Of a stretch of DNA of 64,000 bases, positions 1,252 to 49,372 are shown one piece after another. Source of the DNA: Candidatus Aenigmatarchaeota archaeon (GTDB taxonomy: Archaea; Aenigmatarchaeota; Aenigmatarchaeia; QMZP01; QMZT01). The position numbers were made by a program, and so were the translations under genes. The stretch is from assembly GCA_041489155.1 (NCBI GenBank), contig JBGPQP010000001.1:25431-89430 (forward strand). Reading direction: 5' to 3'. Within the stretch, counting starts at the first letter, position 1. Every line of letters begins with the position of its first letter. The notes beneath the pieces are model-generated. The model was given only the letters and a program-made list of their open reading frames with translations. It had not been told where the DNA came from and searched no databases.

Positions 1252-2958
1252 ATGGCAGATCTGGAGAAGCCTCTGCAGAGGATGAGCATAGAAGAGAAGA
1301 AGCAGCTGATAGAGGAGAAGAAGAAGGCAAAATATGAAAGTCTGATAGCATACTGGAAAAAAGAGCTCAAAGGCTATGACATGGCCCTTGATTATTTTCT
1401 CGACAAGGCAAGGGCTACAGCCGGGATATACGGAGATGTGTGCATAAATCCGGCGCTTATCGACCAGATAGTAAGTCTCAATCCCGTCACGCTCGAAGGC
1501 CAGGCCGAAATAATCTATAATATTTTCATTTACAGGACGGCCAAGTGGCATTACCACGTCGAAAAGGCAGACGAATATCTCAGGGTCACGCCAACCGCTC
1601 CGCCTGCATTCGCTCCGTTGATGGCGCAGAAGGAGAGGCTGGAAGGCCATATAAAGGCCGGCCTCGCCTCAGCCGCGCAGGCCGTCGCAGACTACGAGCT
1701 TCTCAAGCATGACGAAAGGAAGTACAGGGAAATTCTCGACTATTTCGATCTGGGCAAGAAAGACGAGCATGTGCTCCGCGCACTATTCGTCGACAGGGTC
1801 GACGCCTTTGTCGGGGAAGGCTACTCGATGGTCACCATGACGAGGCGCTGGCCTACCATCATAGGCGATTTTCTGAAGATGAAGAGCGAGTGGACGGACA
1901 CCAAAATCATAAGGGAGAAGCTAAGCGTCACCAATGTTGAAGCAAACGTGCTTAAAACGAAGAACGAGCTCTTCAAGGAATGGAAAAAGCTTTTCTTCCC
2001 GGACGTGAGAGAGCGTTATGGCAGGATAAAAAACCTGCTGGACTCGAGGAAAAGGTCCGTCGACGAATACAGGGAATGGCTCAAACCGTATCTCAACAAG
2101 CTCAAGACCATAAAGGAAGAGGCGGAAATAAAGGATGCAGCTTCCGAACTCACGGAAATAACCAAGCTTTCCTTCACCCCGCAGGGCGAGGTCAATGCGA
2201 AACTCTGGTTCTGGAAACCCATAAGGCCGGAGGAAATGGGGAAACCGCTGGTGATACAGGGGTGGGGCGAGATACCGACTTTCGACGACTGGGTGAAGGA
2301 ACATCTGCCGGCGCTCGAAGCGAAGTATGAAGTCACAATGTCCGAGGAGGAGATAAGGAAGTTCCTTGACAAGTGCATAAGAGGCCACTACCGGGGCATG
2401 AAAAGGCCCGAGTTGCACATGATATACCCTGCTCCGTCGATTGACCCGAGATTCTTATATTATTTTTTCATCGATCTTGACTATGTCTGCCAGTACAAGA
2501 AAGGTTCCACTGGCCCGATGGTGGTTGAGGATCAGTACTGGCACTTCCACCCGTTTTTGATTTCAAAAAATTTCCTTCTTTTCGCCCTGCTCGAGCTCGA
2601 ATACAAAAAGAAAAAATTCGCAGAGGATATAGAAAGGCTGATAGGCGTGAAGAAGATAGAAGACGAATACATGGAAGAGGCCAAGAAGAAGTGGCCTGGG
2701 CAGGATAAACGCAAGAAGCAGAGGAAGAATTTTTCAGAAACATGGAACGAATCAAAGGTCAGGTGGATAGCAAGGAGGAGGAAGGTAAAGAAAGCGCTTA
2801 AGCCGATACTCAAATTCTTCATAAAGCCCGGCCCCTACGAGATCAACGCTGCTGAAAGGATTTCGAAAACCTACGGCCTGTATTCGGGAGCGCAGGTAGA
2901 GGAGCTCAGGGATCTCATAAAGGAAACTAGTTATAGGATAAGTGGCCAGAGACCGTGA
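1252..2958 (+). CDS. large uncharacterised protein (568 aa), first gene of a two-gene operon
   Basis: Long ORF with protein-like, K/E/W/Y-rich composition and no recognisable catalytic motif. Its stop overlaps the start of the next gene by 17 nt, implying co-translation. Confidence 0.6.
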   Translation: MADLEKPLQRMSIEEKKQLIEEKKKAKYESLIAYWKKELKGYDMALDYFLDKARATAGIYGDVCINPALIDQIVSLNPVTLEGQAEIIYNIFIYRTAKWHYHVEKADEYLRVTPTAPPAFAPLMAQKERLEGHIKAGLASAAQAVADYELLKHDERKYREILDYFDLGKKDEHVLRALFVDRVDAFVGEGYSMVTMTRRWPTIIGDFLKMKSEWTDTKIIREKLSVTNVEANVLKTKNELFKEWKKLFFPDVRERYGRIKNLLDSRKRSVDEYREWLKPYLNKLKTIKEEAEIKDAASELTEITKLSFTPQGEVNAKLWFWKPIRPEEMGKPLVIQGWGEIPTFDDWVKEHLPALEAKYEVTMSEEEIRKFLDKCIRGHYRGMKRPELHMIYPAPSIDPRFLYYFFIDLDYVCQYKKGSTGPMVVEDQYWHFHPFLISKNFLLFALLELEYKKKKFAEDIERLIGVKKIEDEYMEEAKKKWPGQDKRKKQRKNFSETWNESKVRWIARRRKVKKALKPILKFFIKPGPYEINAAERISKTYGLYSGAQVEELRDLIKETSYRISGQRP

Positions 2959-4768
2959 AACTATGATAAGGGTCGGAGTCACGACGGGTCTGTATTACAT
3001 CGCAAGGGCTGAGGAGCTCGCTACGTCGCTTAAGAAAATAGGCTATGCCCTCTCGAAAGGTTCAAACTCCATCGAAATCTCCGGCGATACGCCGCATGAA
3101 ATAGACTACACACTGGGCAAGGAGATACGCGCCCTCGCTGAAAAACAGGGCATCCACCTGTGTTTCCACGGCTCGCTGACGACGCCTTTCGAAATCCCCG
3201 AGCGCACGGACTGGAGGGACGCGCAGGACCACGTGTGCAAATCCATACGCTCCGCGGTTTTTTCGGGATGCAAATACGTCCTCTTCCATGCATGCCTGCA
3301 TTTCTGGCTCGAGATGATAACTTACACGTCGTCGAAGCTTGAGATAGTCATGTGCGACCATCACGGCAGGTTCATTTCAGAGGTATTCTTCGAGAACAAA
3401 AAAATGAGGGACTGGTTCGCAGTGAAGATGTGGCAATACGAAAGGCAATATCCCCAGCAGATACTGAGCGAAGAGGAATTGCAGGAAGCGAGCGGGAGGG
3501 TCGGAACGGAAATACGTATATGGGAAACCGAGGAAAACAGGAGAAGGCTTTCCGAGCGCCTGAAAAAGTACCCGATAATAATGACGCCCTACGGGCCAGA
3601 ACAGGACATAAAACCCGAGGAACGCAAACGCATAGAGAACGAGGTGGTAAGGGATGTCAGCATGGAAGGAGGCAAGATGTACTCGGAAAAGTACAGGAAG
3701 TACATGGGCGAGATGGTGAGGGAAAGGATGCAGAGGGACCCGATCGGTAACAGGAGATGGAGGGTCGACAACTGGGGCAAGCTGACTGACGCATACGATA
3801 TAATGGCGCATTTCATGTTCTACAACAGAGATCCCATCTGGATCGCGATGGCTGAAATATACAAGGACGTGCTCGCTTCCTACAAGATGGACTACAGCGA
3901 CGACTGGTGGGTCGACAGGGCATGGAGGCGCGCACAGGATCTGAACGACAGGGATTTCAAACAGTTCTGGTATGCCGCGATAGGGGCGAAGTTCCTTGAG
4001 GGCCACATGAGGGATGCGATGGATTTCCTGAACAGAAGGTTGATAGACGAAATTAAAAGTTCCCCGTTCCCTCCTGAGGACATCAAAAAACTGATTGACA
4101 TAACCAAAAACCTGAAGATAACGATAGAGATGCCCGACGCGAGGGAGCCTAGATACGCCGGCCTGTACATTCTCTGGCATCCGAAACAGATTTACACGGC
4201 AATAAAGACCATAAGGAAGACGATCGGGACCGACAGGCTTTTCATGACCGTCGACTGGGAGCACATCGCAGGGCACGGCGTCGATCCTTTGATTGAGAAG
4301 GACTACCTGAAGAAGCTTGCTCCGGACTTTGGCAAATTCGTGCTTTCGGTCCATTCCAACGCGCCAAATCCGCTGCACGCGCATTATCCGATAGAGCTTG
4401 GCGACATGGAAATTTACAGGCTCAACTGGTTCTTGCGCGAAACGGGTTTCGGCAAGCAGAATTTCGACGTTTACCTCTGGTTCGAGCGCGGAGGCGGCGA
4501 CGACCCTTTCAAGCAGTCGGTCGATACGCTGAAACTCTGCGCGAAATTCCTGGAGAAAGACGTCCCTCCAGACCATCTGCCCGAGGAATATTTCGGCATA
4601 AAGATGACGGGCATGGATTACTGGAGGCAGGAACAGATAATGAGGGACCACAGGTTCGAGCCGCTGAAAGACCTCATGGAAGTGCCTGAAGAAGAATGGG
4701 GCCTGCTGTCGAGCTCGGCGACAAAGAAAGGCAAGGCAAAGGAATTCAAGAAAGCCGAAATGAGGTAG
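2942..4768 (+). CDS. xylose-isomerase-like TIM-barrel protein (sugar-phosphate isomerase/epimerase or AP-endonuclease-2-like) with a large internal insertion
   Basis: The N-terminus MIRVGVTTGLYY…AEELATSLKKIGYALSKGSNSIEISGDTPHE…GIHLCFHGSL matches the start of xylose-isomerase-like barrels (hydrophobic beta1, E-I/L-S/W-G-D-H-PHE, then an H-A-P/H-G beta3). The C-terminus …LFMTVDWEHIAGHGVDPLIEKDYL…FVLSVHSNAPNPLHAHYPIELGDMEI…FDVYLWFERGG matches the metal-binding D-x-x-H, H-x-H and E segments. Residues ~130-410 form a charged insertion with no counterpart in canonical members. Inference from pattern only. Confidence 0.55.
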   Translation: MARDRETMIRVGVTTGLYYIARAEELATSLKKIGYALSKGSNSIEISGDTPHEIDYTLGKEIRALAEKQGIHLCFHGSLTTPFEIPERTDWRDAQDHVCKSIRSAVFSGCKYVLFHACLHFWLEMITYTSSKLEIVMCDHHGRFISEVFFENKKMRDWFAVKMWQYERQYPQQILSEEELQEASGRVGTEIRIWETEENRRRLSERLKKYPIIMTPYGPEQDIKPEERKRIENEVVRDVSMEGGKMYSEKYRKYMGEMVRERMQRDPIGNRRWRVDNWGKLTDAYDIMAHFMFYNRDPIWIAMAEIYKDVLASYKMDYSDDWWVDRAWRRAQDLNDRDFKQFWYAAIGAKFLEGHMRDAMDFLNRRLIDEIKSSPFPPEDIKKLIDITKNLKITIEMPDAREPRYAGLYILWHPKQIYTAIKTIRKTIGTDRLFMTVDWEHIAGHGVDPLIEKDYLKKLAPDFGKFVLSVHSNAPNPLHAHYPIELGDMEIYRLNWFLRETGFGKQNFDVYLWFERGGGDDPFKQSVDTLKLCAKFLEKDVPPDHLPEEYFGIKMTGMDYWRQEQIMRDHRFEPLKDLMEVPEEEWGLLSSSATKKGKAKEFKKAEMR

Positions 4769-7928: not shown

Positions 7929-9122
7929 ATGAGGGGGCAGTTTTATTCTATCATAGCGATATTTGTCACCATACCTATCGTCTTCTTCATATCGCTCTAC
8001 GTCGCCTCGCAAGGAGGCGAGAGCGGCGTCTACGAGAAAATAGTCTCCGACCAGATACATCAGGTGGAGAGGAGCGTGGAAAACGACTTCGGCAAAGCAA
8101 TCGTTACTTCGGGGAAGAGGGCGATGATAGCTGGGGACGATTACGTCGTGATGAACGGCCAGCCCATGAGCAATGCTGTGAGCGGCATGAAAGAGCTTAT
8201 GGAGAACGGGACGATCTACGGCAATGAAAGCATGCTCATGGTAAACAACACTATATCAAACTGGATCGCGAAAATTATCGCGGTTGCCGTGAACTTCGAC
8301 GTCAACATAAGCTATTCTGGCCTACAGATTTCGGGCAATAACTCATTCAACCTGAAAGCGTCGGCAAACATAAACGTGTCCGTTGCCGACGACCTCGGAA
8401 TCGCGAGGGTGGACAGACTAAACCAGTATTACGAAGCCCTTGTTCCAATCGAGGGGGCGGAAGATCCTGTATTCTCTCTCAAGACGAACGGCGTAATAAC
8501 GAGGTCGATAAAGATATCGCCTTACCCCTACAGGGCGAAAAGGCTCGTCACTGGCGGCTTGAATTCGACCGGCAATTGCACCGGCAATGTCACTTTCAAC
8601 AAGACGGACTGCACTTCCAAGATACTTGTTGCGGAAAACATTTCTGGCATCAGTTTCGGCTGCTTTTCCGGCTTCATTATAGAGGAATCGGCCAACCTTA
8701 CCGCCAGTTCAGACTGTTTTGTGACCGGCAATTCCACTGCGTTCGAAAGCATGACGCAGGCCATTGCCAACACAGGATATGCAAGAATTTATCTCGATGG
8801 CAGCACGAAATCGGCGTGGCATCTTCCGATACGGGAAGAAATAGACAACAAATATTATTTCACGGGGAATGGACCGGATTTCCTAAAAAGGCTCGAAGGC
8901 GATTTGAACGCGACAACAGATGGCATTGAGACAATAGTGAATCTCCCGGAACTGGAAAGTTATGGAATTCCGATAGACGACAACGTCATCTCCGTGGATT
9001 ATATATATTTCGGGAACCAAGACTATATTGGGTATCCCGTTAGGGGTTTGCAGGGCTGGCTCAGGCTAAACAGGACTTTTGCTGACAGGTACGGCCTGAC
9101 AGAATTGTGCGAAGGATGTTGA
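7929..9122 (+). CDS. large secreted pilin-like glycoprotein with KGQ-type class III signal peptide
   Basis: The N-terminus MRGQFYSIIAIFVTIPIVFFISLYVAS has a basic residue, then Gly, then Gln(+1), then a hydrophobic helix; this is the EppA-type prepilin signature. More than 15 N-x-S/T sequons (NGT, NES, NNT, NIS, NNS, NVS, NST, NCT, NVT, NKT, NLT, NAT, NRT) indicate an N-glycosylated extracellular protein. 397 aa. Confidence 0.55.
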   Translation: MRGQFYSIIAIFVTIPIVFFISLYVASQGGESGVYEKIVSDQIHQVERSVENDFGKAIVTSGKRAMIAGDDYVVMNGQPMSNAVSGMKELMENGTIYGNESMLMVNNTISNWIAKIIAVAVNFDVNISYSGLQISGNNSFNLKASANINVSVADDLGIARVDRLNQYYEALVPIEGAEDPVFSLKTNGVITRSIKISPYPYRAKRLVTGGLNSTGNCTGNVTFNKTDCTSKILVAENISGISFGCFSGFIIEESANLTASSDCFVTGNSTAFESMTQAIANTGYARIYLDGSTKSAWHLPIREEIDNKYYFTGNGPDFLKRLEGDLNATTDGIETIVNLPELESYGIPIDDNVISVDYIYFGNQDYIGYPVRGLQGWLRLNRTFADRYGLTELCEGC

Positions 9123-9904
9123 TTATGGACGAGGAATATGTAGAGCTGGAAGGAGCGAAGGATGATGAAAAAAAGAAGCCTGCAAAAAGAATGAAACAGC
9201 AACCCCAAGCCGAAAAATCAGATGCTGTTAAAGAAGCATTCGAACCACCCAAGCCAGCCAAACCGGTCAAAGCGGAAACGGCCAAAACCATGAAGAAACT
9301 GCCCGAGGAGCAAAAAGAGGAGGGTCCGGAAAAACCAACAGAAGTGGAAGAAACCAAAAAACCGAAGCCCAAGAGCAAACCAGCAAAACCCAGAGAAGTA
9401 AAGGCTGAAAAAATAATGGATCATGTCGAAACCGATGTTGATAAGCTTTACGAGCTAGTCAGGGATAAAGGCATACTGAAGGTGAAGGAAGCATCCAAAA
9501 TACTGGGCATCGACATGGATCAAGTCGAGGAATGGAGCAGAATCCTCGAGGAACACAAGCTGGTCAGGCTCCGCTATCCACCGGTAGGCGAGCCGGTTCT
9601 GATACTCAAAAGATTCACCACCGATTCAGAAAAATTACAGAAGCTGAAAGGCGGCAAGAAGCTCAAACCGAGAAGAAGGGTCTTCATAATAAACATAATT
9701 ATTCTTGTCTTTTTCCTTGCAGTCATTGCCATATTCAGTGTCAGAATTCCCACAATAAGGATAACTTATATCCAAGCTTATTTAGCCGTTGGAGCAATAA
9801 TTATCATAGGAGCCGTGTTTGTTTTCAGGGTTGTGAGAGGTAGAAAAAATGCAGGCAAAAAAGATGCAAAATCCGAAGAAAAGTCAGGAGAAAAAGCCGA
9901 CTGA
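9107..9904 (+). CDS. Lys/Pro/Glu-rich protein with a central winged-helix-like segment and C-terminal TM helices
   Basis: Low-complexity KPAKP/KEE N-terminal region, then a predicted helical/wH-like block (KLYELVRDKGILKVKEASKILGIDMDQVEEWSRILEEHKLVRL), then two hydrophobic helices (IINIIILVFFLAVIAIFSV…, AVGAIIIIGAVFVF). Sits immediately upstream of, and overlapping, the secretion ATPase gene. Confidence 0.5.
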   Translation: MRRMLIMDEEYVELEGAKDDEKKKPAKRMKQQPQAEKSDAVKEAFEPPKPAKPVKAETAKTMKKLPEEQKEEGPEKPTEVEETKKPKPKSKPAKPREVKAEKIMDHVETDVDKLYELVRDKGILKVKEASKILGIDMDQVEEWSRILEEHKLVRLRYPPVGEPVLILKRFTTDSEKLQKLKGGKKLKPRRRVFIINIIILVFFLAVIAIFSVRIPTIRITYIQAYLAVGAIIIIGAVFVFRVVRGRKNAGKKDAKSEEKSGEKAD

Positions 9905-11402
9905 TAGCAAAGAAAAAGGTATGGATGTTCTGGAGAATTATAATATAGAATACCAGAATGTCATCGCCATAGTAAGGATTTATCACGACCAGAACGAATA
10001 CGTGCCTATTTATGAAATAAAATATCCGAAAATAGAGGAGGCCACCTGGGCGATACTTGACTCAATAAGGGAAAAGATAGTCACCGAGCTTGCCTTCAGA
10101 ACTGACGACATACTGAGCCCGGAAGAAACCGGTGACGTAAGAAAAAAATTCGTGCAGAAGGCAACCAACCTCGTTGAATCTGAATTGCCCAATCTGGCAA
10201 AAAACGACGTCGACATACTTGTAGGAATTCTATCGCAGGAATCGCTCGGGCTGGGACCAATCGAGTTCATGCTTAAAGACAACAGCCTTGAAGAAATAGT
10301 GATAAACAACGCAAAAGAACCGATATGGGTTTACCACAGGACCTATGGCTGGCTGAAAACGAATGTCAAACTCAACGACGAGACAAAAATCTACAACTAC
10401 GCCGCGCAGATAGGCAGGAAAGTTGGGACTCAGATAACCAACCTGAACCCGCTCATGGACGCTTATCTGACGACGGGCGACAGGGCAAACGCCACGCTTT
10501 TCCCGATTTCATCAAAGGGCAACACGCTGACCATAAGGAAATTCGCTAGGAGGCCATGGACCATAACTGATTTCATAGAAACCAAGACCATTTCACCTGA
10601 AGTCGCCGCTTTCCTCTGGCTTGCGATACAGTTCGAAATGAACATCGTCTGCACGGGCGGAACGGCTTCCGGCAAAACGTCTTTCCTCAACGTCCTGTGC
10701 ATGTTCATACCTCCGACGCAGAGGATAATATCGATAGAGGACACTAGGGAAATCCAGCTCCCGCCGTTCCTTCACTGGCTGCCGCTCACGACAAGGCCGC
10801 CCAACATAGAGGGCAGGGGAGAGGTCACGATGCTGCAACTCATGATAAACGCACTTCGCATGAGGCCGGACAGGATGATAGTCGGGGAGATACGACGCTC
10901 GAAAGAGGCCGAGGTCCTCTTTGAAGCGATAAACACGGGCCACTCGGTGTATTCAACGCTCCACGCGAACACCGCGGAAGAAACTCTGAAGAGGCTTATT
11001 AACCCGCCCATCAACATCCCCTTGTCTTTGCTGACCTCGCTCCAGCTCATAGCGGTGATGCACAGGGACAGGAGAAAGAATATAAGAAGGGTTCTGGAGG
11101 TCACCGAACTCATACCATCCGGCGGGATCGACGAGATGAAAATCGAACTGAACAACGTTTTCAGGTGGGTGCCATCGAAGGACCAGATGATAGAATGGGG
11201 CAAATCCAACAGGGTGTGGAACGACATAAAATTGTTCTCGGGCATGGAGGACAACGAAATAAAGAAGAATCTCGAGGAAAAAAAGAGCGTACTTCTCTGG
11301 ATGGTGAAAAACAAGATAAACACGATAGACAAAGTAGGAAGGATAATATCGGACTACTATAAAGATCCTGAAAGCGTGCTAAAAATGGTAAGAAAGGCGT
11401 AG
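9849..11402 (+). CDS. type II/IV secretion-system ATPase (FlaI/TadA/PilB-like) paralog 1
   Basis: Walker A CTGGTASGKTSFLN, aspartate box IISIEDTREIQL, Walker B RMIVGEIR, His box NTGHSVYSTLHAN. An alternative start at the Met of MDVLENYN (9921) would remove the overlap with the upstream gene. Confidence 0.9.
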   Translation: MQAKKMQNPKKSQEKKPTDSKEKGMDVLENYNIEYQNVIAIVRIYHDQNEYVPIYEIKYPKIEEATWAILDSIREKIVTELAFRTDDILSPEETGDVRKKFVQKATNLVESELPNLAKNDVDILVGILSQESLGLGPIEFMLKDNSLEEIVINNAKEPIWVYHRTYGWLKTNVKLNDETKIYNYAAQIGRKVGTQITNLNPLMDAYLTTGDRANATLFPISSKGNTLTIRKFARRPWTITDFIETKTISPEVAAFLWLAIQFEMNIVCTGGTASGKTSFLNVLCMFIPPTQRIISIEDTREIQLPPFLHWLPLTTRPPNIEGRGEVTMLQLMINALRMRPDRMIVGEIRRSKEAEVLFEAINTGHSVYSTLHANTAEETLKRLINPPINIPLSLLTSLQLIAVMHRDRRKNIRRVLEVTELIPSGGIDEMKIELNNVFRWVPSKDQMIEWGKSNRVWNDIKLFSGMEDNEIKKNLEEKKSVLLWMVKNKINTIDKVGRIISDYYKDPESVLKMVRKA

Positions 11403-39810: not shown

Positions 39811-40074
39811 TTACATTATGTCCTTTTCGGATACTATGACGAAGTCCCCCACGGATTTGACCGCAGAGAATGGTACCAGCGTGCGTCCTTTGTCATCTTC
39901 CTGCAGGTTGAGTTCACCAGCATGCTTCGTTGGTTGAACTAGGACCAGATTGATGAGTTCTCCAGATTCAACAATGTAATCAAGATCGCCTACCACTCCG
40001 AATTTCTTTCCGCTTTCCTCCGAAATGAGTATCTTACCTATAAGGTCCCTGCTTCTTACTCTTTCTTCTGACAT
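39811..40074 (-). CDS. PRC-barrel domain protein
   Basis: 87 aa with the characteristic …LIGKILISEESGKKFGVVGDLDYIVESGELINLVLV… beta-barrel pattern. Confidence 0.65.
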   Translation of the reverse strand: MSEERVRSRDLIGKILISEESGKKFGVVGDLDYIVESGELINLVLVQPTKHAGELNLQEDDKGRTLVPFSAVKSVGDFVIVSEKDIM

Positions 40075-40123
40075 AAAAACCCTCCCTCGATAATGATATT
40101 ATTAAAGTGTGATATTTAAAAAT

Positions 40124-41215
40124 TTATGCATGAACCATAAGGGTTCTTATCTTTTCAGATAATACATACTGGTAGCTTTTGCCTCTTTTCTTTCTTATGA
40201 TAGTTGCGTCTTTCACAAGCCTTTTAAGAATGTTGTTTATGGACCGTATCGCATTATCCTTGCTCTTGTAGTCGCCCATGTCCATTTTCTCAACGATTTC
40301 CGTCGGTGTCAGCTCTCCGTATTTCCATAATATTTCGATTATATTCCTTTGTTTTGACGGCAGAGATTTCAGGGAACCGAATGAGGTTCTTCGAGAATGG
40401 CTAATGTGTGTTTCGAATTCTGCATCTCTCATGAAGTTCATGTCAACAGTAGAGATGTTGTCCACAAGTGCCTTGTTCACCAAATCGTTGCACATCCTTA
40501 TAACTTCACGCGGGAAGCCTCCTGTTTTTTCGTATATCATTTCTACTGTTTCCGAAGTGAACGGCTTTATGTCTTCGCCACCAACGTGTTCTATCCTTCT
40601 TTTTATAAGCTCCCTGATTTCTGATTTTGTAAGATTTATGAGTTCAACCTTTGTGTTGGCCCTTCTCATGAATGTTTCAAGTCTGTCTCTCAGAATAGGT
40701 TCTAGTGTAGGCAGACCTGCAATTACAACAGATAGATTGTCTATCTGGTCGGTAAGAGTTCTAAGCCACTCTAGCGTTTCCGTGCTTGCCTCATGGCCTT
40801 CATCCACGAGAAGAACGGCTTTTTTATTCTTCATTTTTTCGTTCACCCATTCACTGAGATTGTAAATGTTTATGTTTTTGCTGCGTGAAAATAATCTTTC
40901 GAGTGTTCCTACGTGTATGAAGTTGGTGAAAATCTTCACCCAGTCGTCTGGATTGCTCGGTGGTTTCGAAAGGTAAAATATTTTTCTGTGTTTTTCGAAC
41001 CTATTCGTCAAAAACTTCAAGAGCGTTGTTTTTCCTGATCCCGTTGGGCCTATTAATATTGACAATTTGTCATTGTTTTGTATACTGGTTGACAATTTTT
41101 CTGTCTCTCTGCTATATCCTACGATTAAATCCGGAAGTATCTTGAAACTGAAGGGGTTTTCTCTCCAGCTAAATACCTTCATATATTTTTCATCTAACTT
41201 CATTTCCAAATTCAT
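40124..41215 (-). CDS. Orc1/Cdc6-like AAA+ ATPase with C-terminal winged helix
   Basis: The N-terminus …ENPFSFKILPDLIVGYSRETEKLSTSIQ…LSILIGPTGSGKTTLLKFL follows the Orc1/Cdc6 pattern (Lxxd-Y-P..L..RExE…GxxGTGKT). Walker B LLVDEGHE; sensor regions; a C-terminal wH (…KQRNIIEILWKYGELTPTEIVEKMD…). It is shorter (363 aa) than canonical Orc1. Confidence 0.5.
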   Translation of the reverse strand: MNLEMKLDEKYMKVFSWRENPFSFKILPDLIVGYSRETEKLSTSIQNNDKLSILIGPTGSGKTTLLKFLTNRFEKHRKIFYLSKPPSNPDDWVKIFTNFIHVGTLERLFSRSKNINIYNLSEWVNEKMKNKKAVLLVDEGHEASTETLEWLRTLTDQIDNLSVVIAGLPTLEPILRDRLETFMRRANTKVELINLTKSEIRELIKRRIEHVGGEDIKPFTSETVEMIYEKTGGFPREVIRMCNDLVNKALVDNISTVDMNFMRDAEFETHISHSRRTSFGSLKSLPSKQRNIIEILWKYGELTPTEIVEKMDMGDYKSKDNAIRSINNILKRLVKDATIIRKKRGKSYQYVLSEKIRTLMVHA

Positions 41216-41337
41216 AATTTCATATAATTAGGAAAGCTATTTAAATGCTTTTCGTGAAGTTGTGTGAACTTTGACTGAAAAAGGTCTATGTTTATACGTG
41301 ATGAAAACAATTTATATAAGTTCTCCAAATTCATTTC

Positions 41338-41892
41338 ATGAGGTGCTTCATAGCTATAGACGTCGATGAAAAACTTTTTGATAAGATTACAGAACTGCAG
41401 AAAGGAATTAATAAACTGAATGTTGACGTGAAGCTTGTTGAACCTGAAAATCTTCATTTCACGGTTAAATTTCTGGGGGACATGAATGAAGATGAAGTGA
41501 ATGAAATTAAGAATTCGCTTGGCGAATGTCTTAAAAATGAACATGAATTTAAAATCAACATTACAGGCTTTAATTATTTTGGAAACCCGAGCTACATTAG
41601 AACTCTGTGGTTGGATGTGAAAGAAGGCCAAAATGAGCTTAAAAAACTGGTTCAAATGGTTAACGATTGTGTTAAAATAGGCAAACTTGAAGTTTTGCCT
41701 CATCTGACACTTGGAAGAGTGAAAAGTCCCATAAATAAAGATTATTTGATCAAGTTCATAAACGAGAATAAAAACGTGAAGATTGGTGAAATGAACGTGA
41801 ACTACGTGAAATTAAAAGCGAGTACGCTTACGAAAAACGGTCCAGTATACAATAATTTGGCTGTTTTCAACTTGGTGCCTTGTTATGAATGA
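41338..41892 (+). CDS. thpR: RNA 2',3'-cyclic phosphodiesterase / 2'-5' RNA ligase (ThpR/LigT, 2H family)
   Basis: Two H-x-T/S-x motifs of the 2H phosphoesterase fold: LHFTVKFLG and PHLTLGRV. 184 aa. Confidence 0.8.
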   Translation: MRCFIAIDVDEKLFDKITELQKGINKLNVDVKLVEPENLHFTVKFLGDMNEDEVNEIKNSLGECLKNEHEFKINITGFNYFGNPSYIRTLWLDVKEGQNELKKLVQMVNDCVKIGKLEVLPHLTLGRVKSPINKDYLIKFINENKNVKIGEMNVNYVKLKASTLTKNGPVYNNLAVFNLVPCYE

Positions 41893-42268
41893 GAAAAAAC
41901 TAACGAAGATAAGTGCTGTTGGTGTGTGCATAAGCATAATAGCTCTGTATATTGTAACAAATCAAATCTTTTCAGTAAATGTGAATATTGGTGAAATTGA
42001 CAAGTCATTCATCGGAAAGAGCGTTAATATAACAGGTACGGTGGTTGGCATAACAAAAAACAAGGGTAATTTTTTCGTGGACCTTGAAGATGACACGGGC
42101 AAAATAAAATTGATATTGTGGGAGGATACTGCTGAATTGTTGCAATCAAACGGCATTGAAATCAACGAACTGAACAAAGGTAACATTATTAACGTTGTGG
42201 GTGAGGTTCAGGTATACAGGGGCGAATTAGAAATTATACCTATAAGAGGAAATTTGAATTTTTTGTGA
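41885..42268 (+). CDS. membrane-anchored OB-fold nucleic-acid-binding domain protein
   Basis: N-terminal TM helix (ISAVGVCISIIALYIVT), then an OB-fold-like block (KSVNITGTVVGITKNKGNFFVDLEDDTGKIKLILWED…INVVGEVQVYRGELEI), similar to the tRNA_anti/RPA-type OB folds. Translationally coupled to thpR. Confidence 0.5.
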   Translation: MNEKKLTKISAVGVCISIIALYIVTNQIFSVNVNIGEIDKSFIGKSVNITGTVVGITKNKGNFFVDLEDDTGKIKLILWEDTAELLQSNGIEINELNKGNIINVVGEVQVYRGELEIIPIRGNLNFL

Positions 42269-42269
42269 A

Positions 42270-43307
42270 CTAGAAACGTTCATGCGCAGTTTTGATAAGT
42301 TCTGTCACGAGTTTAATTATATCCTTCACATCATTCATATCCGAAACTTCTGTTGGTGTGTGAAGATAACGTGAAGGTGCCAATATCGCTAGTGAGGGTA
42401 TACCTTCTCTTATCATCGGTGTCATTGAAGCGTCAGTTGCACCTCCTGAAACAATGTCGAATTGTATCTTCATGTTGTTCTTTTTTGCAGTATCAACTAC
42501 CCATTGTTTAACCTCATTTTGTATAATACTTATTGCATCTTTTATCATAAGAACCGGTCCTTCTCCAAGTTTTGCAGTGGCCTCATATGGTTTGATTTCA
42601 GGTGTATCGCCGGCTGTTGTTACATCAAGGGATATCACTATGTCAGGGTTTGTTGCAAATACAGAGCCCCTTATGCCTATAAGCCCTATTTCTTCTTTCA
42701 CTGTTCCAACTGCATAAACTGTCCCTTTGAATTTAGTTTTCTTTAAATTTTTCATGACTTCTATTAATTCCAAGCATCCTATGCGATCATCGAATCCATA
42801 TCCCGTTATTCTAGAACCACAAAGTTTGTCGAACTCGCCATAATTTGTTATGAAATCTCCTGTCCTGATACCCATTTTTTCAACTTCTTTTTTGTTCTTT
42901 GCCCCCACATCTATGAACATTTCTGCTAACTTCACGGGCTTGTTCACGTCTTCTTTGTCTTGGAGGTGAATTGGTTTTGAACCAATAACTCCTATGACGG
43001 GTCCCTTGGAGCTATGTATCTTGAATTTTTGCGAAAGAAGGATTTTGGGATCCCATCCTCCTATGGTTTCAAATCTTATGAAACCCTCATCGTCTATATA
43101 TTTCACCATTAAACCTACTTCATCCATGTGGGCACTGAGCATTATTTTAGGAGAACCAGATCCTTTTCTGCATATCAAGTTACCTATTTTGTCAACTTTA
43201 AGTTCTTCAACATATGGTTTCAGTTCTTTAATCAGCACATCTCTTACGTTTTTTTCATCGCCGGAAATTGAAGGAGAATCTACAAGTTTTTTCAATGTTT
43301 CTTCCAT
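42270..43307 (-). CDS. M42-family metallo-aminopeptidase (FrvX/TET-like)
   Basis: Metal-binding blocks SAHMDEVGLMV, GFDDRIGC and later E/D/H ligands; 345 aa typical of M42 peptidases. Confidence 0.85.
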   Translation of the reverse strand: MEETLKKLVDSPSISGDEKNVRDVLIKELKPYVEELKVDKIGNLICRKGSGSPKIMLSAHMDEVGLMVKYIDDEGFIRFETIGGWDPKILLSQKFKIHSSKGPVIGVIGSKPIHLQDKEDVNKPVKLAEMFIDVGAKNKKEVEKMGIRTGDFITNYGEFDKLCGSRITGYGFDDRIGCLELIEVMKNLKKTKFKGTVYAVGTVKEEIGLIGIRGSVFATNPDIVISLDVTTAGDTPEIKPYEATAKLGEGPVLMIKDAISIIQNEVKQWVVDTAKKNNMKIQFDIVSGGATDASMTPMIREGIPSLAILAPSRYLHTPTEVSDMNDVKDIIKLVTELIKTAHERF

Positions 43308-43367
43308 ACGGACACCACCTACCTACTATCGACTAGATATAAAATATTGGTTTTCCGGTCTATAAAT

Positions 43368-44660
43368 TCATTCTATATCTTCTTTTGACAGGATGTTAAC
43401 TGGAGATTTTAAGTTTTCCTTTTCCATTCCAACCAAGAACTTCACGGATTTCCTTCTGGCTATCATGTCAAGTTTGTAGTCAACCCTGCCGTCGAATATG
43501 ACTGCGTACGGGTTGTCAAGCGTTTTCAGCGTATTCTGTAATTCTTTGGTTGGAACCTTACCCAGAATGTTGAAAAAAGAATCGAAAATGCATGCGGCTC
43601 TGGTTCCTATAAGTTCGTCAAGTGTTTTCTTGAATATCTTTTTCTGTTCATCGGTTATCGTTGTTCTCTTGGGAAGAGGTTGCTGCTGTTTAAAATCCTT
43701 ATCTCTCTGGACGAATTCGTTCATTGGTCTTTCTGTCGATGGCGGCCTCTCAAAGGGTTTCTCAATTGGTCTTTCAATGGGCCTTTCTATGGGTCTTTCT
43801 CTTCTTTCATTGTTGTTCTGCCTATCGATCTTGCCTTCGAGTTTAAATTGTGATGCCGATATCTTGTCCCTCAATGCCTTGAAAACCTCTTTTTTGGTGA
43901 GCTCTTCTACCTCTTTGCCTTCTGGAGCAATGGCAACAAAATCAAGGTCTGTCGTTTCCATCAGGCTTTTCAAGTTCAAAAAGCCGCCCCTGTCACCATC
44001 AAAAAATGCAGTGGTTGTTTTTTGTTTTGAAAGGTTGATTATTGTTTGTGGTATCGAGCTGCCTTCTATGGCTATTACGTTCTTGATTCCGTATCTAATC
44101 ATATTTATTACGTCTGCCCTTCCTTCAACTATTATTATTTCTTCCGACTCTAGAACACCTGGGCCGCAAGGCAAACCCTGATAGCTGGTTATTTCATAGG
44201 TCTTTATCTCCTGTCTTATCTCTTCCGCTATCTTGGTTGTGTCCGGTATGCCTTTCTCAAGAAGTTCTCTCAATATCGATTTTGCCTTTTCTATGACGAA
44301 TTTTCTCTTTAATTCCCTAGTGTCCTCGACTGATTTCAGTATTATCTTTGCGATGCAGGGTCCGACCCTCTCTATAGTTTCCAAAGTAGCGGCTATTAGA
44401 GCAGTTTCTGCTGAGTCGAGAGAAGACGGAATTATGACCTCTCCGTGAGATTTACCTCTTTCGGAATTTATGTTAACCTCGATTCTTCCAATTCTTCCAG
44501 TTCTTTGCAGTTCCCTGAGATCGAGATCAGAACCAAGCAGCCCTTCTGTTTGTCCGAATATTGCTCCTATAACATCAGGTTTTTCTATTACTCCCTGAGC
44601 GTCTATTTCTGCCCTTACAACGTATTTTATCGACGTTGGCGCGAGTTTTGACATGAACAT
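43368..44660 (-). CDS. dnaG: archaeal DnaG-type primase (Toprim)
   Basis: Archaeal DnaG N-terminal signature VIGAIFGQTEGLLGSDLDLRELQRTGRIGRIEV. Toprim core IIIVEGRADVINMIRYGIKNVIAIEGS with DxD (FDGDRGG). An internal tandem peptide repeat ERPIERPIERPIEKPFERPP is present. Confidence 0.85.
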   Translation of the reverse strand: MFMSKLAPTSIKYVVRAEIDAQGVIEKPDVIGAIFGQTEGLLGSDLDLRELQRTGRIGRIEVNINSERGKSHGEVIIPSSLDSAETALIAATLETIERVGPCIAKIILKSVEDTRELKRKFVIEKAKSILRELLEKGIPDTTKIAEEIRQEIKTYEITSYQGLPCGPGVLESEEIIIVEGRADVINMIRYGIKNVIAIEGSSIPQTIINLSKQKTTTAFFDGDRGGFLNLKSLMETTDLDFVAIAPEGKEVEELTKKEVFKALRDKISASQFKLEGKIDRQNNNERRERPIERPIERPIEKPFERPPSTERPMNEFVQRDKDFKQQQPLPKRTTITDEQKKIFKKTLDELIGTRAACIFDSFFNILGKVPTKELQNTLKTLDNPYAVIFDGRVDYKLDMIARRKSVKFLVGMEKENLKSPVNILSKEDIE

Positions 44661-45033
44661 CCTCCTCCAATGAAAGAGAATCCGGGCTATTCAGAGCTCC
44701 GAAATCCTCAATTTTATTTTTTCCCAAAGTCATTACCTTCCACCTTAATTCCGAATTTGGACTTTTTCCTTGCCTTTGAAGCAGGTATTTCAATTTTTTT
44801 GCAATCTCCCTGCCTTTTGTGTCGAAATCGGTCAGTATGACTACCTGTTTTTTCGCACTTAATGCGACCTCGGCCACCTCATAAAGCGGCCTGCCGTTGA
44901 TCGCAATAATATCTTTCAGGCCGAGGGTTTTTAAAGCTTTTTTGTCCATTTTCCCCTCGACTATGATCAGTTTGTCCTCCAAGCCCCTTATAACCTCATC
45001 GAGTTGCTCTTCATCGATTTGTTTGTTTTTCAT
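44575..45033 (-). CDS. small Toprim-domain protein
   Basis: LIIVEGKMDKKALKTLGL…VVILTDFDTKGREIAKKL is a Toprim (E…DxD) core. The 3' ~85 nt overlap the dnaG start; the Arg/Ser-rich tail may be out-of-frame read-on. Confidence 0.5.
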   Translation of the reverse strand: MKNKQIDEEQLDEVIRGLEDKLIIVEGKMDKKALKTLGLKDIIAINGRPLYEVAEVALSAKKQVVILTDFDTKGREIAKKLKYLLQRQGKSPNSELRWKVMTLGKNKIEDFGALNSPDSLSLEEDVHVKTRANVDKIRCKGRNRRSGSNRKT

Positions 45034-45860
45034 ATCAATGCGTCCACTATGTCTCTTTTAGTTACAATGCCAATAAGCTCTTCTTCATCAGTGACTGGCA
45101 AGCCACCTATATGCATGCTTTTCATGAGGTTTATTACTGAAAACAAGTCAGCATTGAACTGGATTGTGACCAGATCCTTGTTCATAATTTTTTCTATCTT
45201 CGTCTTATCCGTGACTAGAGTATTCAAACTCTTGTTTTTATATAAATGCTTCAGTATATCGATCGGTGTCACAACACCAAGCAGTATGTTGTCTTCCACG
45301 ACTGGCAGCCTCCTAAAACCACCCCTGCACATCATTTTTGCGACATCGTGTATATTGTTGTCTTTCCGTATGAATATTGGCCTTTCCACCATTATTTCGC
45401 TTACCTCTATGCCCACTGGTCTGTTTATTAGTTTGACTAAATCCAATTCGGAGACCACCGATATTATCTTTTTGGAATCAACTATTGGATAAAGACCACT
45501 TCTTTCCATCTTGAAAATTTCAAGCGCTCTGCCTATACTGGTCATGTAATGTATGGTTCTAACGTGTGTTGTCATGAATTTTTCGACTTTAAGTTCTATG
45601 TTTTCCCTGTTTCTCTTGAAAATCTCGTGTTTTTCGCCGCCACCGAGCAATTCCAACAGATCAATTGTTGTAACCATGCCCTTCAGAGATTCCGAATGAT
45701 CGACTACTGGTATTTTTCTTACCCCTTCCGAGAACATGAGCCTCAAAACATCCAAAAGTTTTGTTTTTTCATCAGAAAACACCAATCTTCTTGATGATAT
45801 CTCTGTTACTGTCTTTTTTGTGTCCACAAAGGCTCCGAGAACAACTTTTCTGTTAAGCAT
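45030..45860 (-). CDS. four-CBS-domain protein
   Basis: Four CBS repeats (…VRKIPVVDHSE…, …GLYPIVDSKKIISVVSELDL…, …FRRLPVVEDNILLGVVTPIDIL…, …IGGLPVTDEEELIGIVTKRDIV…). The track ORF extends to 46055, but the upstream part is hydrophobic junk overlapping the opposite-strand gene. The start was chosen at the MLNRKVV Met. Confidence 0.65.
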   Translation of the reverse strand: MLNRKVVLGAFVDTKKTVTEISSRRLVFSDEKTKLLDVLRLMFSEGVRKIPVVDHSESLKGMVTTIDLLELLGGGEKHEIFKRNRENIELKVEKFMTTHVRTIHYMTSIGRALEIFKMERSGLYPIVDSKKIISVVSELDLVKLINRPVGIEVSEIMVERPIFIRKDNNIHDVAKMMCRGGFRRLPVVEDNILLGVVTPIDILKHLYKNKSLNTLVTDKTKIEKIMNKDLVTIQFNADLFSVINLMKSMHIGGLPVTDEEELIGIVTKRDIVDALI

Positions 45861-45909
45861 AACAATCCATGAACATTTTATTTTAATTGGAATGAAATAA
45901 AAAATTATC

Positions 45910-47010
45910 ATGCCGAATTTTAAAGGAGCGCTGAAAACAAAGCTACCAAAAAAATTAGAGGACAGGGTATCTCTGCTGTTTATAATCATTACGCTGCTTT
46001 TGGCTTTTTTTCTTACGTTTTCCATTTCATTTATAGTAGGTAAACCGATTGGCACAGATTTCTGGTTTCACCTTAAAATAGCAGAATCTTACGCGAGAGG
46101 CGAGAACGCGCTCTTCAATGAAGAATTCATGGCCCCCAACAGAGGTCCATATCCACCGCTTTTTCACCTGATGCTGGCATTGTTTGTTACTTCGGGTTTT
46201 ATTTTGCAGATAGCAACTTTTCTGCAGGTAATGTTTTATCCTTTGGCTTTGTTCACATCTGTTTTTCTGGTTTGGAAAAGGATTAATGCGTCTTCAGCGT
46301 CTTTTGTTTCTATTGCCCTCTTTTCATCGGTCGCCTTCTTTGACAGATCTATGCAAGTAATTCCTCAGGCCTTCGACATGATACTCTTTCCGCTTGCAAT
46401 TTATTTTTTTCTCACAAAGAGACGGATATTCTTCCTGATTTCTATGTCGATAATGATATATTCACACGGTGCGTTTGGTTTTCTCCTATTTAGTTCTCTC
46501 GTCTTATACAATTTAAAATACAAAGTTTCAAAGAAAATGATAATAGATGTTCTTGTTGCAACTATTCCAATACTGGTATTAATACTTGTTTTTCTTCCAT
46601 CACAAATCGGTTTGATCAATGACATAAAAAATCCGCAGGAAAAACTTATCAAGGAAAATCCAATATCTTTATTTGTTTATATGGGTATTTTTCCCACATC
46701 AACATTCATAGTTTCATTGATGCATTTTTTTCATAAAAAGAGGAAATTAAGTAAAACGGAAATAATGTCACTTTTGTGGTTAATAGTATTACTGCCGGTG
46801 ATAGTTTTTTACCCAGACAGATTTTGTACCTATGCAGTCGTTCCCGTGTCAATCTTGGCTTCAAAATTTTTGTCAGATATTTCTTTTGCTCATGGTAGAT
46901 GGTTGGGTCTCTTATTACTCGTATTTTCATTTGCAATATCATTGATTACATATTTGAACTGGTGGCAGGTTTTATATGAAACTTCTTCTGTGAGTTTTGA
47001 TATTCATTAA
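45910..47010 (+). CDS. polytopic membrane protein, possibly GT-C-type glycosyltransferase-like
   Basis: About 10 predicted TM helices with a conserved-looking first periplasmic loop (KPIGTDFWFHLKIAESYARGEN). This resembles PMT/ArnT/AglB-like GT-C N-terminal loops only loosely. Confidence 0.4.
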   Translation: MPNFKGALKTKLPKKLEDRVSLLFIIITLLLAFFLTFSISFIVGKPIGTDFWFHLKIAESYARGENALFNEEFMAPNRGPYPPLFHLMLALFVTSGFILQIATFLQVMFYPLALFTSVFLVWKRINASSASFVSIALFSSVAFFDRSMQVIPQAFDMILFPLAIYFFLTKRRIFFLISMSIMIYSHGAFGFLLFSSLVLYNLKYKVSKKMIIDVLVATIPILVLILVFLPSQIGLINDIKNPQEKLIKENPISLFVYMGIFPTSTFIVSLMHFFHKKRKLSKTEIMSLLWLIVLLPVIVFYPDRFCTYAVVPVSILASKFLSDISFAHGRWLGLLLLVFSFAISLITYLNWWQVLYETSSVSFDIH

Positions 47011-47032
47011 TAAGAATGGATAAATTATAACT

Positions 47033-48412
47033 ATGAAAAATGTACTTGAAAAGGTTCTTAAAAAAATAGTGCCAAGCAAGAATGAGATAGAAGAATTTTC
47101 TAGAATACTGAAAGACGTTCTGCATGCCGCCGACATGGTTTTGAAGCCTCTGAAGCTTGAAAAAACAATCGCCGGTTCATTCATACGTGATACGTGGCTT
47201 GCTGACAAGCGTGAGCTGGATCTTTTCATAATGTTTCCTGTTTCATATTCGCGCGAAAGACTTGAGAAGGTTGGCATAAAGATTGGCAAAAAAATCATGA
47301 AAAAACTAAATGGCAGATACGAGATAGCCTATGCTGAACATCCGTATGTTAAGGGGTGGTTCAGAGGCTTCATGTTAGATATAGTTCCATGTTATAAAGT
47401 CGAATCAGCTTCAAAAATAAAATCTGCTGTCGATAGAACGCCTTTCCATAACAAATACATTATTGAAAATCTGAAACCGAAAATGGCAAACGAGGTCCGT
47501 CTTCTTAAACAATTCTGCAAGGCGATGGGGGTTTATGGCTCTGACGTAAGAACCCAGGGATTTTCGGGTTACCTATGCGAACTGCTGATAATAAAATACA
47601 AAACTTTCAAAAATTTGTTGATTGAAGCTAAAAAATGGGAATTCGGCATTTTTATAGATTTGGAGAACCACTGCAAATTCGACTATCCTACCGAACAATT
47701 TAAAGGCCAGCCATTGATTGTTATAGACCCAACAGACCCAAAAAGAAATGTTGCTGCTGCCCTCTCAGACGATAATTTCATGAAATTCATTGAAACCTCT
47801 GGGGAGTTTATTAAAAACCCATCTACAAAGTTTTTCGAAATAGACAAGACTGCACTTAAAGGAATTCTGTTAAAAAAATATTTGAAAAAAAGAGGTACGG
47901 AGTTTTTTGTGATAGAGTTCAAAAGACCGGAAATTGTTGATGATATATTATGGTCCCAGATGAGGAAAACTTCAGTTAGAATGGCCAATCTTTTGGGAGA
48001 AAACGAATTCGAAATTTTCAAAAAAGAGGTATGGAGTGATGAAAAACGTTCTTATCTATTATTCGAGATGAAGGTGTGGAAACTGCCAGAAATAAGAAAG
48101 GTTATGGGGCCACCCGTCGGTTCGCAGAAACACGCAGATGAATTTAAAAAGAAATATGCAAGTAGTGCTTACATAGAAGGAGATAGATGGGCAGCCGAAG
48201 TTAAGAGAAAAAACAGGGACTGCGCTTTACTTTTTAAAAAATTCCTAAAAAAACCTAGTAAAAAATTGCAGAACGAAGGGGTAAGATCTTATATTGCAAA
48301 GAGCATTTCTAACGGTTTTAAAATTCTTGGAAGCAAAAAAATTGAAGAGTTGATTGCAAAAAATAAAGATTTTGCTGTTTTTCTCAAAAAATATTTTGAG
48401 AGGAAATTATGA
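47033..48412 (+). CDS. cca: CCA-adding enzyme (archaeal class I tRNA nucleotidyltransferase)
   Basis: N-terminal nucleotidyltransferase signature AGSFIRDTWLADKRELDLFIMF (GS…R.T.L…D.D); ~459 aa, typical for archaeal CCA enzymes. Confidence 0.8.
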   Translation: MKNVLEKVLKKIVPSKNEIEEFSRILKDVLHAADMVLKPLKLEKTIAGSFIRDTWLADKRELDLFIMFPVSYSRERLEKVGIKIGKKIMKKLNGRYEIAYAEHPYVKGWFRGFMLDIVPCYKVESASKIKSAVDRTPFHNKYIIENLKPKMANEVRLLKQFCKAMGVYGSDVRTQGFSGYLCELLIIKYKTFKNLLIEAKKWEFGIFIDLENHCKFDYPTEQFKGQPLIVIDPTDPKRNVAAALSDDNFMKFIETSGEFIKNPSTKFFEIDKTALKGILLKKYLKKRGTEFFVIEFKRPEIVDDILWSQMRKTSVRMANLLGENEFEIFKKEVWSDEKRSYLLFEMKVWKLPEIRKVMGPPVGSQKHADEFKKKYASSAYIEGDRWAAEVKRKNRDCALLFKKFLKKPSKKLQNEGVRSYIAKSISNGFKILGSKKIEELIAKNKDFAVFLKKYFERKL

Positions 48413-49301: not shown

Positions 49302-49372
49302 ATATTTAAATACCTTATCTGACAAGAATAAAGAATTACAGCCGTGTACTGCGTAAGCAGGAGGTTGCCATA

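Follow-up and report, generated by a model that had tools for sequence, protein, structure and literature searches.

In a 64,000-nucleotide stretch of DNA from a Candidatus Aenigmatarchaeota archaeon (contig JBGPQP010000001.1, positions 25,431 to 89,430 of the forward strand; hereafter, the window), two adjacent open reading frames (ORFs), ORF1 and ORF2, belong to a conserved gene module that also encodes a small two-transmembrane (2-TM) protein and two paralogous small proteins, p172 and p165. In its predicted structure, ORF2 is a xylose-isomerase-like (beta/alpha)8 TIM barrel split by a long insertion, and its conserved residues form, as judged by alignment, a nine-position multinuclear ligand pattern of the endonuclease IV (Endo IV) type, of which the four-residue site of sugar epimerases is a subset. 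We tentatively favor a reading in which ORF2 could be the catalytic subunit of a membrane-tethered, Aenigmarchaeota-restricted complex that hydrolyzes phosphoesters at an Endo IV-type multinuclear metal center.

ORF2 is predicted to be a split TIM barrel with an Endo IV-type ligand pattern

An AlphaFold2 model of ORF2, built from 56 homologs (predicted local distance difference test score [pLDDT] 86.4; predicted template modeling score [pTM] 0.83), places eight strands in barrel order (residues 9–14, 43–47, 72–76, 112–116, 392–396, 433–438, 467–471, and 510–514), with a long helical excursion separating strands 4 and 5. The original prediction, made from the letters of the window alone, had recognized a TIM barrel in the N- and C-terminal parts of the protein, and the model unites these parts in one (beta/alpha)8 barrel. 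The Foldseek check proposed at that time returned ketose 3-epimerases, endonuclease IV, UlaE, and YcjR from the PDB at a probability of 1.00, with TM scores (target) of 0.60–0.70, sequence identities of 6%–11%, and E values of ~1e-3. Full-length ORF2 scored 27.3 bits against PF01261 (AP_endonuc_2), below the gathering score of 31.1 bits and over residues 40–117 of the N-terminal half only; when residues 129–376 were swapped for a short linker, the profile aligned over positions 8–246 of its 249 with 31.3 bits. Many ORF2 homologs carry a precomputed PF01261 match, and the homolog at a deep-branching locus, L090, scored 55.6 bits. The parts of ORF2 (residues numbered in its longest, 608-amino acid [aa] frame) are as follows.

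2963–3325, + strand: N-terminal half of the barrel (residues 8–128), strands 1–4, with predicted ligands H76 and H116
3326–4069, + strand: insertion (residues 129–376), with conserved flanks (129–165 and 271–376) and a variable charged helical hairpin (166–270)
4070–4561, + strand: C-terminal half of the barrel (residues 377–540), strands 5–8, with predicted ligands E396, D438, H441, H471, H479, H481, and E515
4562–4765, + strand: C-terminal tail (residues 541–608), reading ...RQxQIMxDHRFEPLKDLLExPEEEWGLLS..A.KKGK.KEFKK

The insertion between strands 4 and 5 is helical and about 265 aa long. It had been described as a charged, W/Y/R/E-rich segment with no canonical counterpart, and on its own it indeed has no Pfam match; it is not, however, uniform filler. 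Across 71 species-level homologs, its flanks (129–165 and 271–376) are 47%–48% identical to the window protein, about as conserved as the barrel, with 22 columns conserved at 95% or more and the motif NDRxFKxFFY..GAKFLEGH. Only the middle (166–270, ~105 aa), a predicted helical hairpin, is variable, with 20% identity. The 68-residue tail is also on par with the barrel (mean column conservation 0.68; 9 columns at 95% or more). It is predicted to be helical at lower confidence (pLDDT 59–75), is kept in the divergent L090 homolog, and could possibly serve as a partner-binding segment. Separately, insertion residues ~139–205 (window 3356–3556; C-D-H..G.FI......LR.WF) gave a weak profile match to the N-terminal helical domain of PRIM2, the eukaryotic primase large subunit (residues 99–166; E = 0.015–0.05). 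A link to the PriL N-terminal domain is probably chance, given that it involves a single protein family at a borderline E value of 0.015 and that the motif is missing from L090.

The His, Asp, and Glu metal ligands predicted for the barrel are intact. H76, H116, E396, D438, H441, H471, and E515 are invariant in all 71 species-level homologs, and H479 and H481 are conserved in 68 and 69 of them, respectively; in the model, E396, D438, H471, and E515 sit at the C-terminal ends of strands 5–8. We aligned the insertion-deleted ORF2 family profile with E. coli K-12 Nfo using hhalign in local mode, which paired H76 with H69, H116 with H109, D438 with D179, H441 with H182, H471 with H216, H479 with D229, H481 with H231, and E515 with E261. 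Seven of these eight ligand positions hold the same residue, and the eighth replaces Nfo D229 with His. The full Nfo ligand set is H69, H109, E145, D179, H182, H216, D229, H231, and E261, a numbering that we checked against the Nfo sequence. Among published sites, the class II apurinic/apyrimidinic (AP) endonuclease AsfvAP binds three Zn ions via His78, His115, Glu142, Asp179, His182, Asp231, His233, and Glu271, in an arrangement almost identical to that of Nfo (PMC7076025), and ketose 3-epimerases bind one metal via Glu152, Asp185, His211, and Glu246 (PMC8167858). The ORF2 pattern would be multinuclear because its nine conserved residues fit the published three-metal positions and extend beyond the four epimerase ligands. 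The full metal site and the PF01261 match also led us to reject identity with Rpp30, the TIM-barrel subunit of RNase P, and the literature consulted on it offered no connection.

These data bear directly on the JGI annotation of ORF2, under which it would be a mononuclear sugar or sugar-phosphate isomerase/epimerase, with the insertion and partner proteins regulating or scaffolding it. All four epimerase ligand positions (E396, D438, H471, and E515) are present, the best Foldseek E values (6e-4 to 1e-3) belong to L-ribulose, D-allulose, and D-tagatose 3-epimerases, and some sources name homologs "sugar phosphate isomerase/epimerase." Five extra conserved His residues (H76, H116, H441, H479, and H481), however, occupy Endo IV-specific positions and would have no role in a mononuclear site. 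A PDB profile search with the ORF2 core barrel ranked three Endo IV enzymes (APN1 and two entries named "endonuclease 4") first, above the epimerases, and Foldseek root-mean-square deviations are lower for Endo IV (6–9 Å) than for most epimerases (13–18 Å). Sugar-metabolism genes, moreover, are not consistently linked to the module. We therefore regard an epimerase as unlikely.

ORF1 and ORF2 belong to a five-gene module of Aenigmarchaeota

ORF1 and ORF2 had been proposed to form a two-gene operon with a fixed partner. The partnership was borne out, but the unit proved larger: the 2-TM protein, p172, and p165 are linked to the pair as well, giving a five-gene module in ~60 species-level genomes. 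In the window, its genes lie at the left edge.

1–404, − strand: p165 (distal small paralog), 5′ part of ~134 codons, start ATG 404, beginning MGKFVIEDDCFAP; cut by the window edge
421–939, − strand: p172, 172 aa, soluble, divergent from ORF1
940–1010: A/T-rich intergenic region between the divergent units, from sequence inspection
1011–1208, + strand: 2-TM protein, 65 aa from ATG 1011, or 68 aa if GTG 1002 is used
1252–2958, + strand: ORF1, 568 aa, start ATG, stop TGA 2956–2958
2942–4768, + strand: ORF2, longest frame, 608 aa, start GTG
2963–4768, + strand: ORF2, likely frame, 601 aa, from an ATG supported by homologs

Both long ORFs called in the original prediction (568 and 608 aa) are present in the window and are real, conserved genes: each has ~290 homolog clusters in a 5.8-billion-protein collection, at 38%–98% identity and near-full coverage. 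Named matches come nearly all from metagenome-assembled genomes (MAGs) of Candidatus Aenigmarchaeota/Aenigmatarchaeota, and the earlier guess of an archaeal origin was correct. To define linkage, we ran a pattern scan over one genome per GTDB species, obtaining 87 loci with ORF2 relatives, almost all labeled Aenigmatarchaeota, and kept 80. By tblastn and clustering of all ORFs, 57 loci have ORF1 immediately before ORF2 in the same orientation. Among the 61 loci whose sequence extends 2 kb or more upstream of ORF2, 59 encode ORF1 (58 from clustering, plus L082). Homologs of p172 were found by tblastn in 59 of the 80 species loci (37%–91% identity); at 56, p172 is on the minus strand with ORF1 and ORF2 on the plus strand, and three are rearranged. 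A hydrophobic 2-TM ORF of 52–80 aa stands between p172 and ORF1, on the strand of ORF1, in every one of the 54 loci with the divergent layout.

The most conserved gene of the module is p172, with a median identity of 52%, above ORF2 (49%) and ORF1 (39%); its 241 homolog clusters are nearly all from Aenigmarchaeota. p172 and p165 are paralogous families (hhalign probability 100%, E = 5e-50), and p172-family genes total 102 copies in 54 loci. At full length, p165 is a gene of ~165 aa lying beyond p172, and the window p165 clusters with the p172 family. The two families have in common two near-invariant Cys (C15 and C149 in p172), and neither gave a Pfam or PDB match, even with 44 members scanned singly. 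The 2-TM protein has two predicted helices and a conserved loop (FFPG..HQ), with no Cys in this ORF across the 54 loci. A START/Bet v 1-like lipid-binding fold for p172 and part of ORF1 was hinted at only by Foldseek matches with a probability of at most 0.1 and drew no Pfam support in 44 family members. Comparisons with hhalign gave no sign that p172 corresponds to a domain within ORF1 or within ORF2, or that ORF1 contains internal repeats. Opposite p172, an antisense ORF of 193 aa (397–978, + strand) exceeds the true gene (421–939, − strand) in length, and this artifact recurs in 26 related loci (ORF cluster 6). Gene callers that favor length could thus pick the wrong strand.

ORF1 is a basic alpha/beta protein (isoelectric point 9.15) with a variable N terminus. 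As anticipated, it belongs to no recognizable family, with no match in Pfam, NCBIfam, or PDB sequences, but it is not devoid of motifs, as had been claimed: its core (residues 116–290) holds 68 columns conserved at 90% or more. A basic, variable, disordered segment with 19 Lys and Arg follows at 471–522, and the tails of ORF1 and ORF2 are both basic. The AlphaFold2 model of ORF1 (pLDDT 78.7, pTM 0.71) contains two helices of ~50–60 residues and several beta-hairpins, and Foldseek gave no significant match for it, whether against the PDB (best E = 0.08) or against BFVD viral models (TM at most 0.2). When 1.84 billion representative proteins were searched with a profile, only 241 relatives were recovered at E ≤ 1e-3. 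These include a shorter subfamily of ~390–500 aa that comprises the core only; its named members are labeled Aenigmatarchaeota, and none of 10 sampled members had a Pfam match above threshold.

The module is also recognizable where its order has changed. In L046 and L057, ORF1 is inverted with respect to p172-p165-ORF2; in L069, L070, and L073, p165 directly follows ORF2; and in L087 and L088, p172 reads in the same direction as ORF1, with ORF2 located elsewhere in L088. Only the ENG42 lineage has p172-p165 without adjoining ORF1 or ORF2. At the deep-branching L090, the order is two multi-pass membrane proteins, an ORF1-like protein (409 aa), the ORF2 homolog (617 aa; positions 9263–11116 of the contig carrying QQG39308.1), a nucleotidyltransferase, and Trm1. 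This ORF2 homolog was confirmed by hhalign (probability 99.96%, E = 4e-39); it has Asp in place of H471 and Met in place of H481, as well as an N-terminal glutaredoxin-fold domain whose CxxC reads DSLS, which weakens the fusion as a clue to redox chemistry.

Beyond the five genes, in 33 of the 80 loci (among L008–L087; e.g., L035, 11868–13085) the gene immediately after ORF2, in the same orientation, encodes a ~405-aa Pol-beta-type nucleotidyltransferase that has a weak HEPN match. Although absent from the 64-kb window, it could represent a sixth module gene. We rejected the idea that it is the CCA-adding enzyme: the window has a canonical one at 47033–48412, and the linked enzyme lacks tRNA_NucTransf2. 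Linkage of the module to TrmB and DNA ligase, both encoded downstream in the window, is seen only in closer relatives (17–26 of 80 loci). A second, compact AP_endonuc_2 barrel of 293 aa is found a few genes downstream of the module in 16 loci (e.g., L041, 14333–15214, − strand), with a degenerate Endo IV-like ligand set and a weak nfo match (E = 4.6e-4).

A few homologs (L084; P0271, P0278, and P0183) are on short contigs labeled candidate division TA06, Deltaproteobacteria, Woesearchaeota, or Micrarchaeota; mis-binning or loose labeling of MAG contigs is the probable cause, rather than real occurrence beyond Aenigmarchaeota. One could suppose that the module is a mobile, viral, or defense element instead of a housekeeping one. 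MNT/HEPN pairs are typical of toxin-antitoxin and defense loci, and the nucleotidyltransferase with its weak HEPN match after ORF2 in 33 loci would fit such an origin. Against it, searches gave no PADLOC match, only insignificant PHROG matches, and no relatives on IMG/VR contigs; complete chromosomes carry the module among core genes, with a single copy at each locus; and window positions 1–5 kb show no GC anomaly. The graded divergence (38%–98% identity among species-level genomes) would, as judged from identities, fit vertical inheritance. For want of database support or a GC anomaly, and in view of the core-gene setting, we consider a mobile or defense origin highly improbable. Presence of the module in 87 species-level genomes of one phylum, and on no viral contig, suggests a core, lineage-defining function.

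A possible membrane-tethered phosphoesterase complex

The genes themselves, the barrel fold, the conservation of its ligands, the gene linkage, and the taxonomic restriction are the results shown above. From gene linkage, conservation, and predicted secondary structure, we infer how the module might work, including its metal content, chemistry, assembly, membrane tethering, and substrate. The 2-TM protein, ORF1, and ORF2 genes would be transcribed in that order as one unit, and p172 and p165 as a divergent one. The strand-end residues of ORF2 (H76, H116, E396, D438-x-x-H441, H471, H479-x-H481, and E515) are the predicted ligands of a multinuclear center with, probably, three metals, for which metal-activated hydrolysis of a phosphodiester or phosphomonoester would be the most likely chemistry. 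The insertion departs from the barrel immediately past ligand H116, and its conserved flanks may form a lid or a substrate- or partner-binding platform over the catalytic face, from which the variable middle would project as a helical arm. ORF1, p172/p165, and the 2-TM protein would act as non-catalytic partners, keeping the enzyme on the cytoplasmic side of the membrane, presenting its substrate, or both. The leading candidate for that substrate is a nucleic-acid end or lesion, with a lipid or cofactor phosphodiester as runner-up.

Several results weigh against this proposal. The hhalign alignment of ORF2 with Nfo is not significant (pairwise E = 0.022), and E396 pairs with Nfo E145 by strand position and topology only, as that segment is mis-registered in the alignment. 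The PDB profile search placed Endo IV first at E values of only 0.12–0.22, and the best Foldseek E values go to sugar epimerases. The NCBIfam nfo models (TIGR00587 and NF002196-9) were unmatched by full-length or insertion-deleted ORF2 even at E ≤ 10, in a search in which E. coli Nfo itself scored 391–555 bits. The DNA-gating Tyr72 of Nfo corresponds to an invariant Leu79 in ORF2 (H76-G-S-L79); this gating Tyr, Tyr81 in AsfvAP and Tyr72 in Nfo, stands three residues after the strand-3 His (PMC7076025). An identical positional pattern of ligands is found in the tri-iron oxidase MbnB (PMC8888699), and the module genes are dispersed in a few genomes (L077/L088, L089).

Some of these results speak also to a more conventional identity for ORF2, that of an orthodox base-excision-repair AP endonuclease, a true Nfo ortholog that acquired an insertion and whose neighbors were kept by inherited synteny. 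Its Endo IV-like ligand set would fit, as would the ATP-dependent DNA ligase two genes downstream in the clade of the window and the PCNA, HhH-GPD glycosylase, and TatD genes near the module in L002. But ORF2 matches no nfo model and lacks the Tyr72 equivalent, the ligase/TrmB linkage is confined to closer relatives, with those genes convergent to the module, and ORF1 and p172/p165 have stayed together despite inversions and translocations, a pattern for which simple inherited synteny does not account. We judge orthology with Nfo to be improbable.

The likeness to MbnB raises another possibility, in which ORF2 would be a multinuclear iron oxidase of an MNIO-like (DUF692-type) kind. ORF1 would be its obligatory partner, in the role of MbnC or TglI, and the oxidase would post-translationally modify a protein or peptide of the cluster, for instance at the conserved Cys of p172/p165. 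MbnB coordinates its metals via His55, His91, Glu135, Asp165, Asn168, His194, Asp209 (with His211), and Glu238, giving the pattern H, H, E, D-x-x-N, H, D-x-H, E at the same barrel positions (PMC8888699). Since the ORF2 ligand pattern also serves tri-iron MNIO oxidases, it does not by itself imply hydrolysis, and Zn/Mn and Fe are indistinguishable from sequence. MbnB also needs an adjacent novel-fold partner that shapes its catalytic cavity, and ORF1 is likewise fixed and of novel fold; the p172/p165 families have two near-invariant Cys; and one divergent ORF2 homolog has a thioredoxin-fold domain. Yet insertion-deleted ORF2 had no match to Pfam DUF692 at E ≤ 10, PF01261 being its sole family match, and the MbnB and TglH structures are absent from the top 50 Foldseek matches, with no MbnC-like match for ORF1. 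The small upstream ORF, a Cys-free membrane hairpin, is unlike a precursor peptide, and the glutaredoxin-like domain carries DSLS, not CxxC. The module is, further, near-universal and single-copy across the phylum, unlike clusters for peptides made by ribosomes and modified after translation (RiPPs). An oxidase thus has, in our estimate, a small probability.

Returning to the favored phosphoesterase complex, a broader version of it, possible but on balance doubtful, would have the module form an Aenigmarchaeota-wide, membrane-tethered, multi-subunit machine in which three families without relatives (ORF1, p172/p165, and 2-TM) surround a split Endo IV-like trimetal barrel. Such a machine might serve a process peculiar to these archaea, which are reduced and probably host dependent; one example would be the handling of scavenged nucleic acids or lipids at the inner membrane face. 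The original prediction had spoken of an undescribed repair or sugar-modification module. Of its two options, repair would fit better than sugar modification because the ligand set is of the nine-position Endo IV type, not that of a four-ligand epimerase (PMC7076025, PMC8167858), although Endo IV membership itself fails several tests. If true, a phosphodiesterase with novel-fold partners at the membrane would be a new architecture in the Endo IV/xylose-isomerase superfamily and could bear on how Aenigmarchaeota repair or acquire nucleic acids or lipids.

Gene starts, promoter, and other features of the window

ORF1 and ORF2 had been described as translationally coupled through a 17-nt overlap. 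This overlap exists only if ORF2 starts at GTG 2942. Nearly all ORF2 homologs start at the position of Met8 of that frame (M-I/L-K/R-V-G-V...), which is ATG 2963 in the window, and homolog P0001, 98% identical to ORF2, is 601 aa long. ATG 2963, which leaves a 4-nt gap after the ORF1 TGA, is thus most likely the true start, and the overlap is probably an artifact of start-codon choice. Across 61 other loci, no conserved ORF1/ORF2 overlap was found; the distance from the ORF1 stop to the ORF2 start is mostly 3–40 nt and is at most 60 nt in 43 of them. The two genes are therefore tightly packed, yet overlap coupling is not a trait of the family. Between the divergent units, the A/T-rich region at 940–1010 contains TATA-like boxes at 951–960 (TTTATATTTT) and 970–979 (AAATTATAAA) and is presumed to be a candidate bidirectional archaeal promoter.

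Elsewhere in the window, three co-oriented genes downstream of the DNA ligase (7929–11402, + strand) encode proteins of 397, ~265, and ~515 aa, the first with a hydrophobic segment at its N terminus. They are kept in 15–16 related loci, and the L004 counterpart of the third is a T2SSE-type secretion/pilus ATPase; the locus may be type IV pilus-like. Positions 40000–50000 have a GC content of 0.36–0.39, versus about 0.44–0.50 elsewhere, and carry genes for an M42 aminopeptidase, a Toprim/DnaG-like protein, a four-CBS protein, the archaeal CCA-adding enzyme (47033–48412), and ribosomal proteins L1 and L10. Because housekeeping genes fill this low-GC stretch, it is unlike an island. A tRNA was matched at 57170–57299 (+ strand, 130 nt; Rfam RF00005, 62.2 bits) and presumably contains an intron; ARAGORN found no tRNA in the window.

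Novelty and comparison with known systems

DPANN archaea such as Aenigmarchaeota have small genomes in which a large share of conserved genes has no function assigned. The present analysis narrows one such conserved block to a testable unit, an enzyme with a predicted multinuclear site, four candidate partners, and defined residues, and corrects the database labels of its homologs, "sugar phosphate isomerase/epimerase" or "hypothetical protein." The ORF2 barrel belongs to a known superfamily; what appears to be undescribed is its splitting, the set of three partner families that lack relatives, and a five-gene organization that extends across the phylum, and a full-text literature search for Aenigmarchaeota together with "TIM barrel" found nothing related.

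Among characterized systems, Endo IV/APN1 (E. coli Nfo, PDB 1QTW/1QUM) is a member of the same TIM-barrel superfamily with ligands at the ends of strands 3–8 in the order H, H, E, D-x-x-H, H, x-H, E, and the likeness extends to HGS after strand 3, FH after strand 4, and VHSN after strand 7. ORF2 differs from it in having no significant sequence score or nfo model match, in carrying His for Nfo D229 and Leu79 for Tyr72, and in its build: at 601 aa, it includes an insertion of ~265 aa that separates strands 4 and 5 and a conserved tail of 70 aa, versus a compact monomer of ~285 aa. It also has dedicated partner genes and a membrane mini-protein. The epimerases and isomerases of PF01261 (D-tagatose, D-allulose, and L-ribulose 3-epimerases, UlaE, and YcjR) share its Pfam family and four of its ligands and give the best Foldseek E values; epimerases bind one metal and have neither the five extra His nor the insertion, tail, and fixed partners.

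The MNIO/DUF692 systems MbnB-MbnC and TglH-TglI resemble the module in their TIM barrel, the positional ligand pattern for three metals, the adjacent novel-fold partner, and the small ORF alongside. ORF2, however, has no DUF692 signal and carries His at the positions of MbnB N168 and D209; ORF1 is unrelated to MbnC and has no structural match in the PDB, which contains MbnBC and TglHI; and the small ORF is a Cys-free membrane hairpin in a phylum-wide, apparently core-genome module, in contrast to a sporadic natural-product cluster. A last comparison is with CbiR, a cobamide-remodeling phosphodiesterase of the AP endonuclease 2 superfamily. CbiR lacks the insertion and the partners and has no significant similarity to the window ORF2, although its NCBIfam model weakly matches the L090 homolog (E = 0.012) and also Nfo; it illustrates that a barrel of this kind can hydrolyze a small-molecule phosphodiester.

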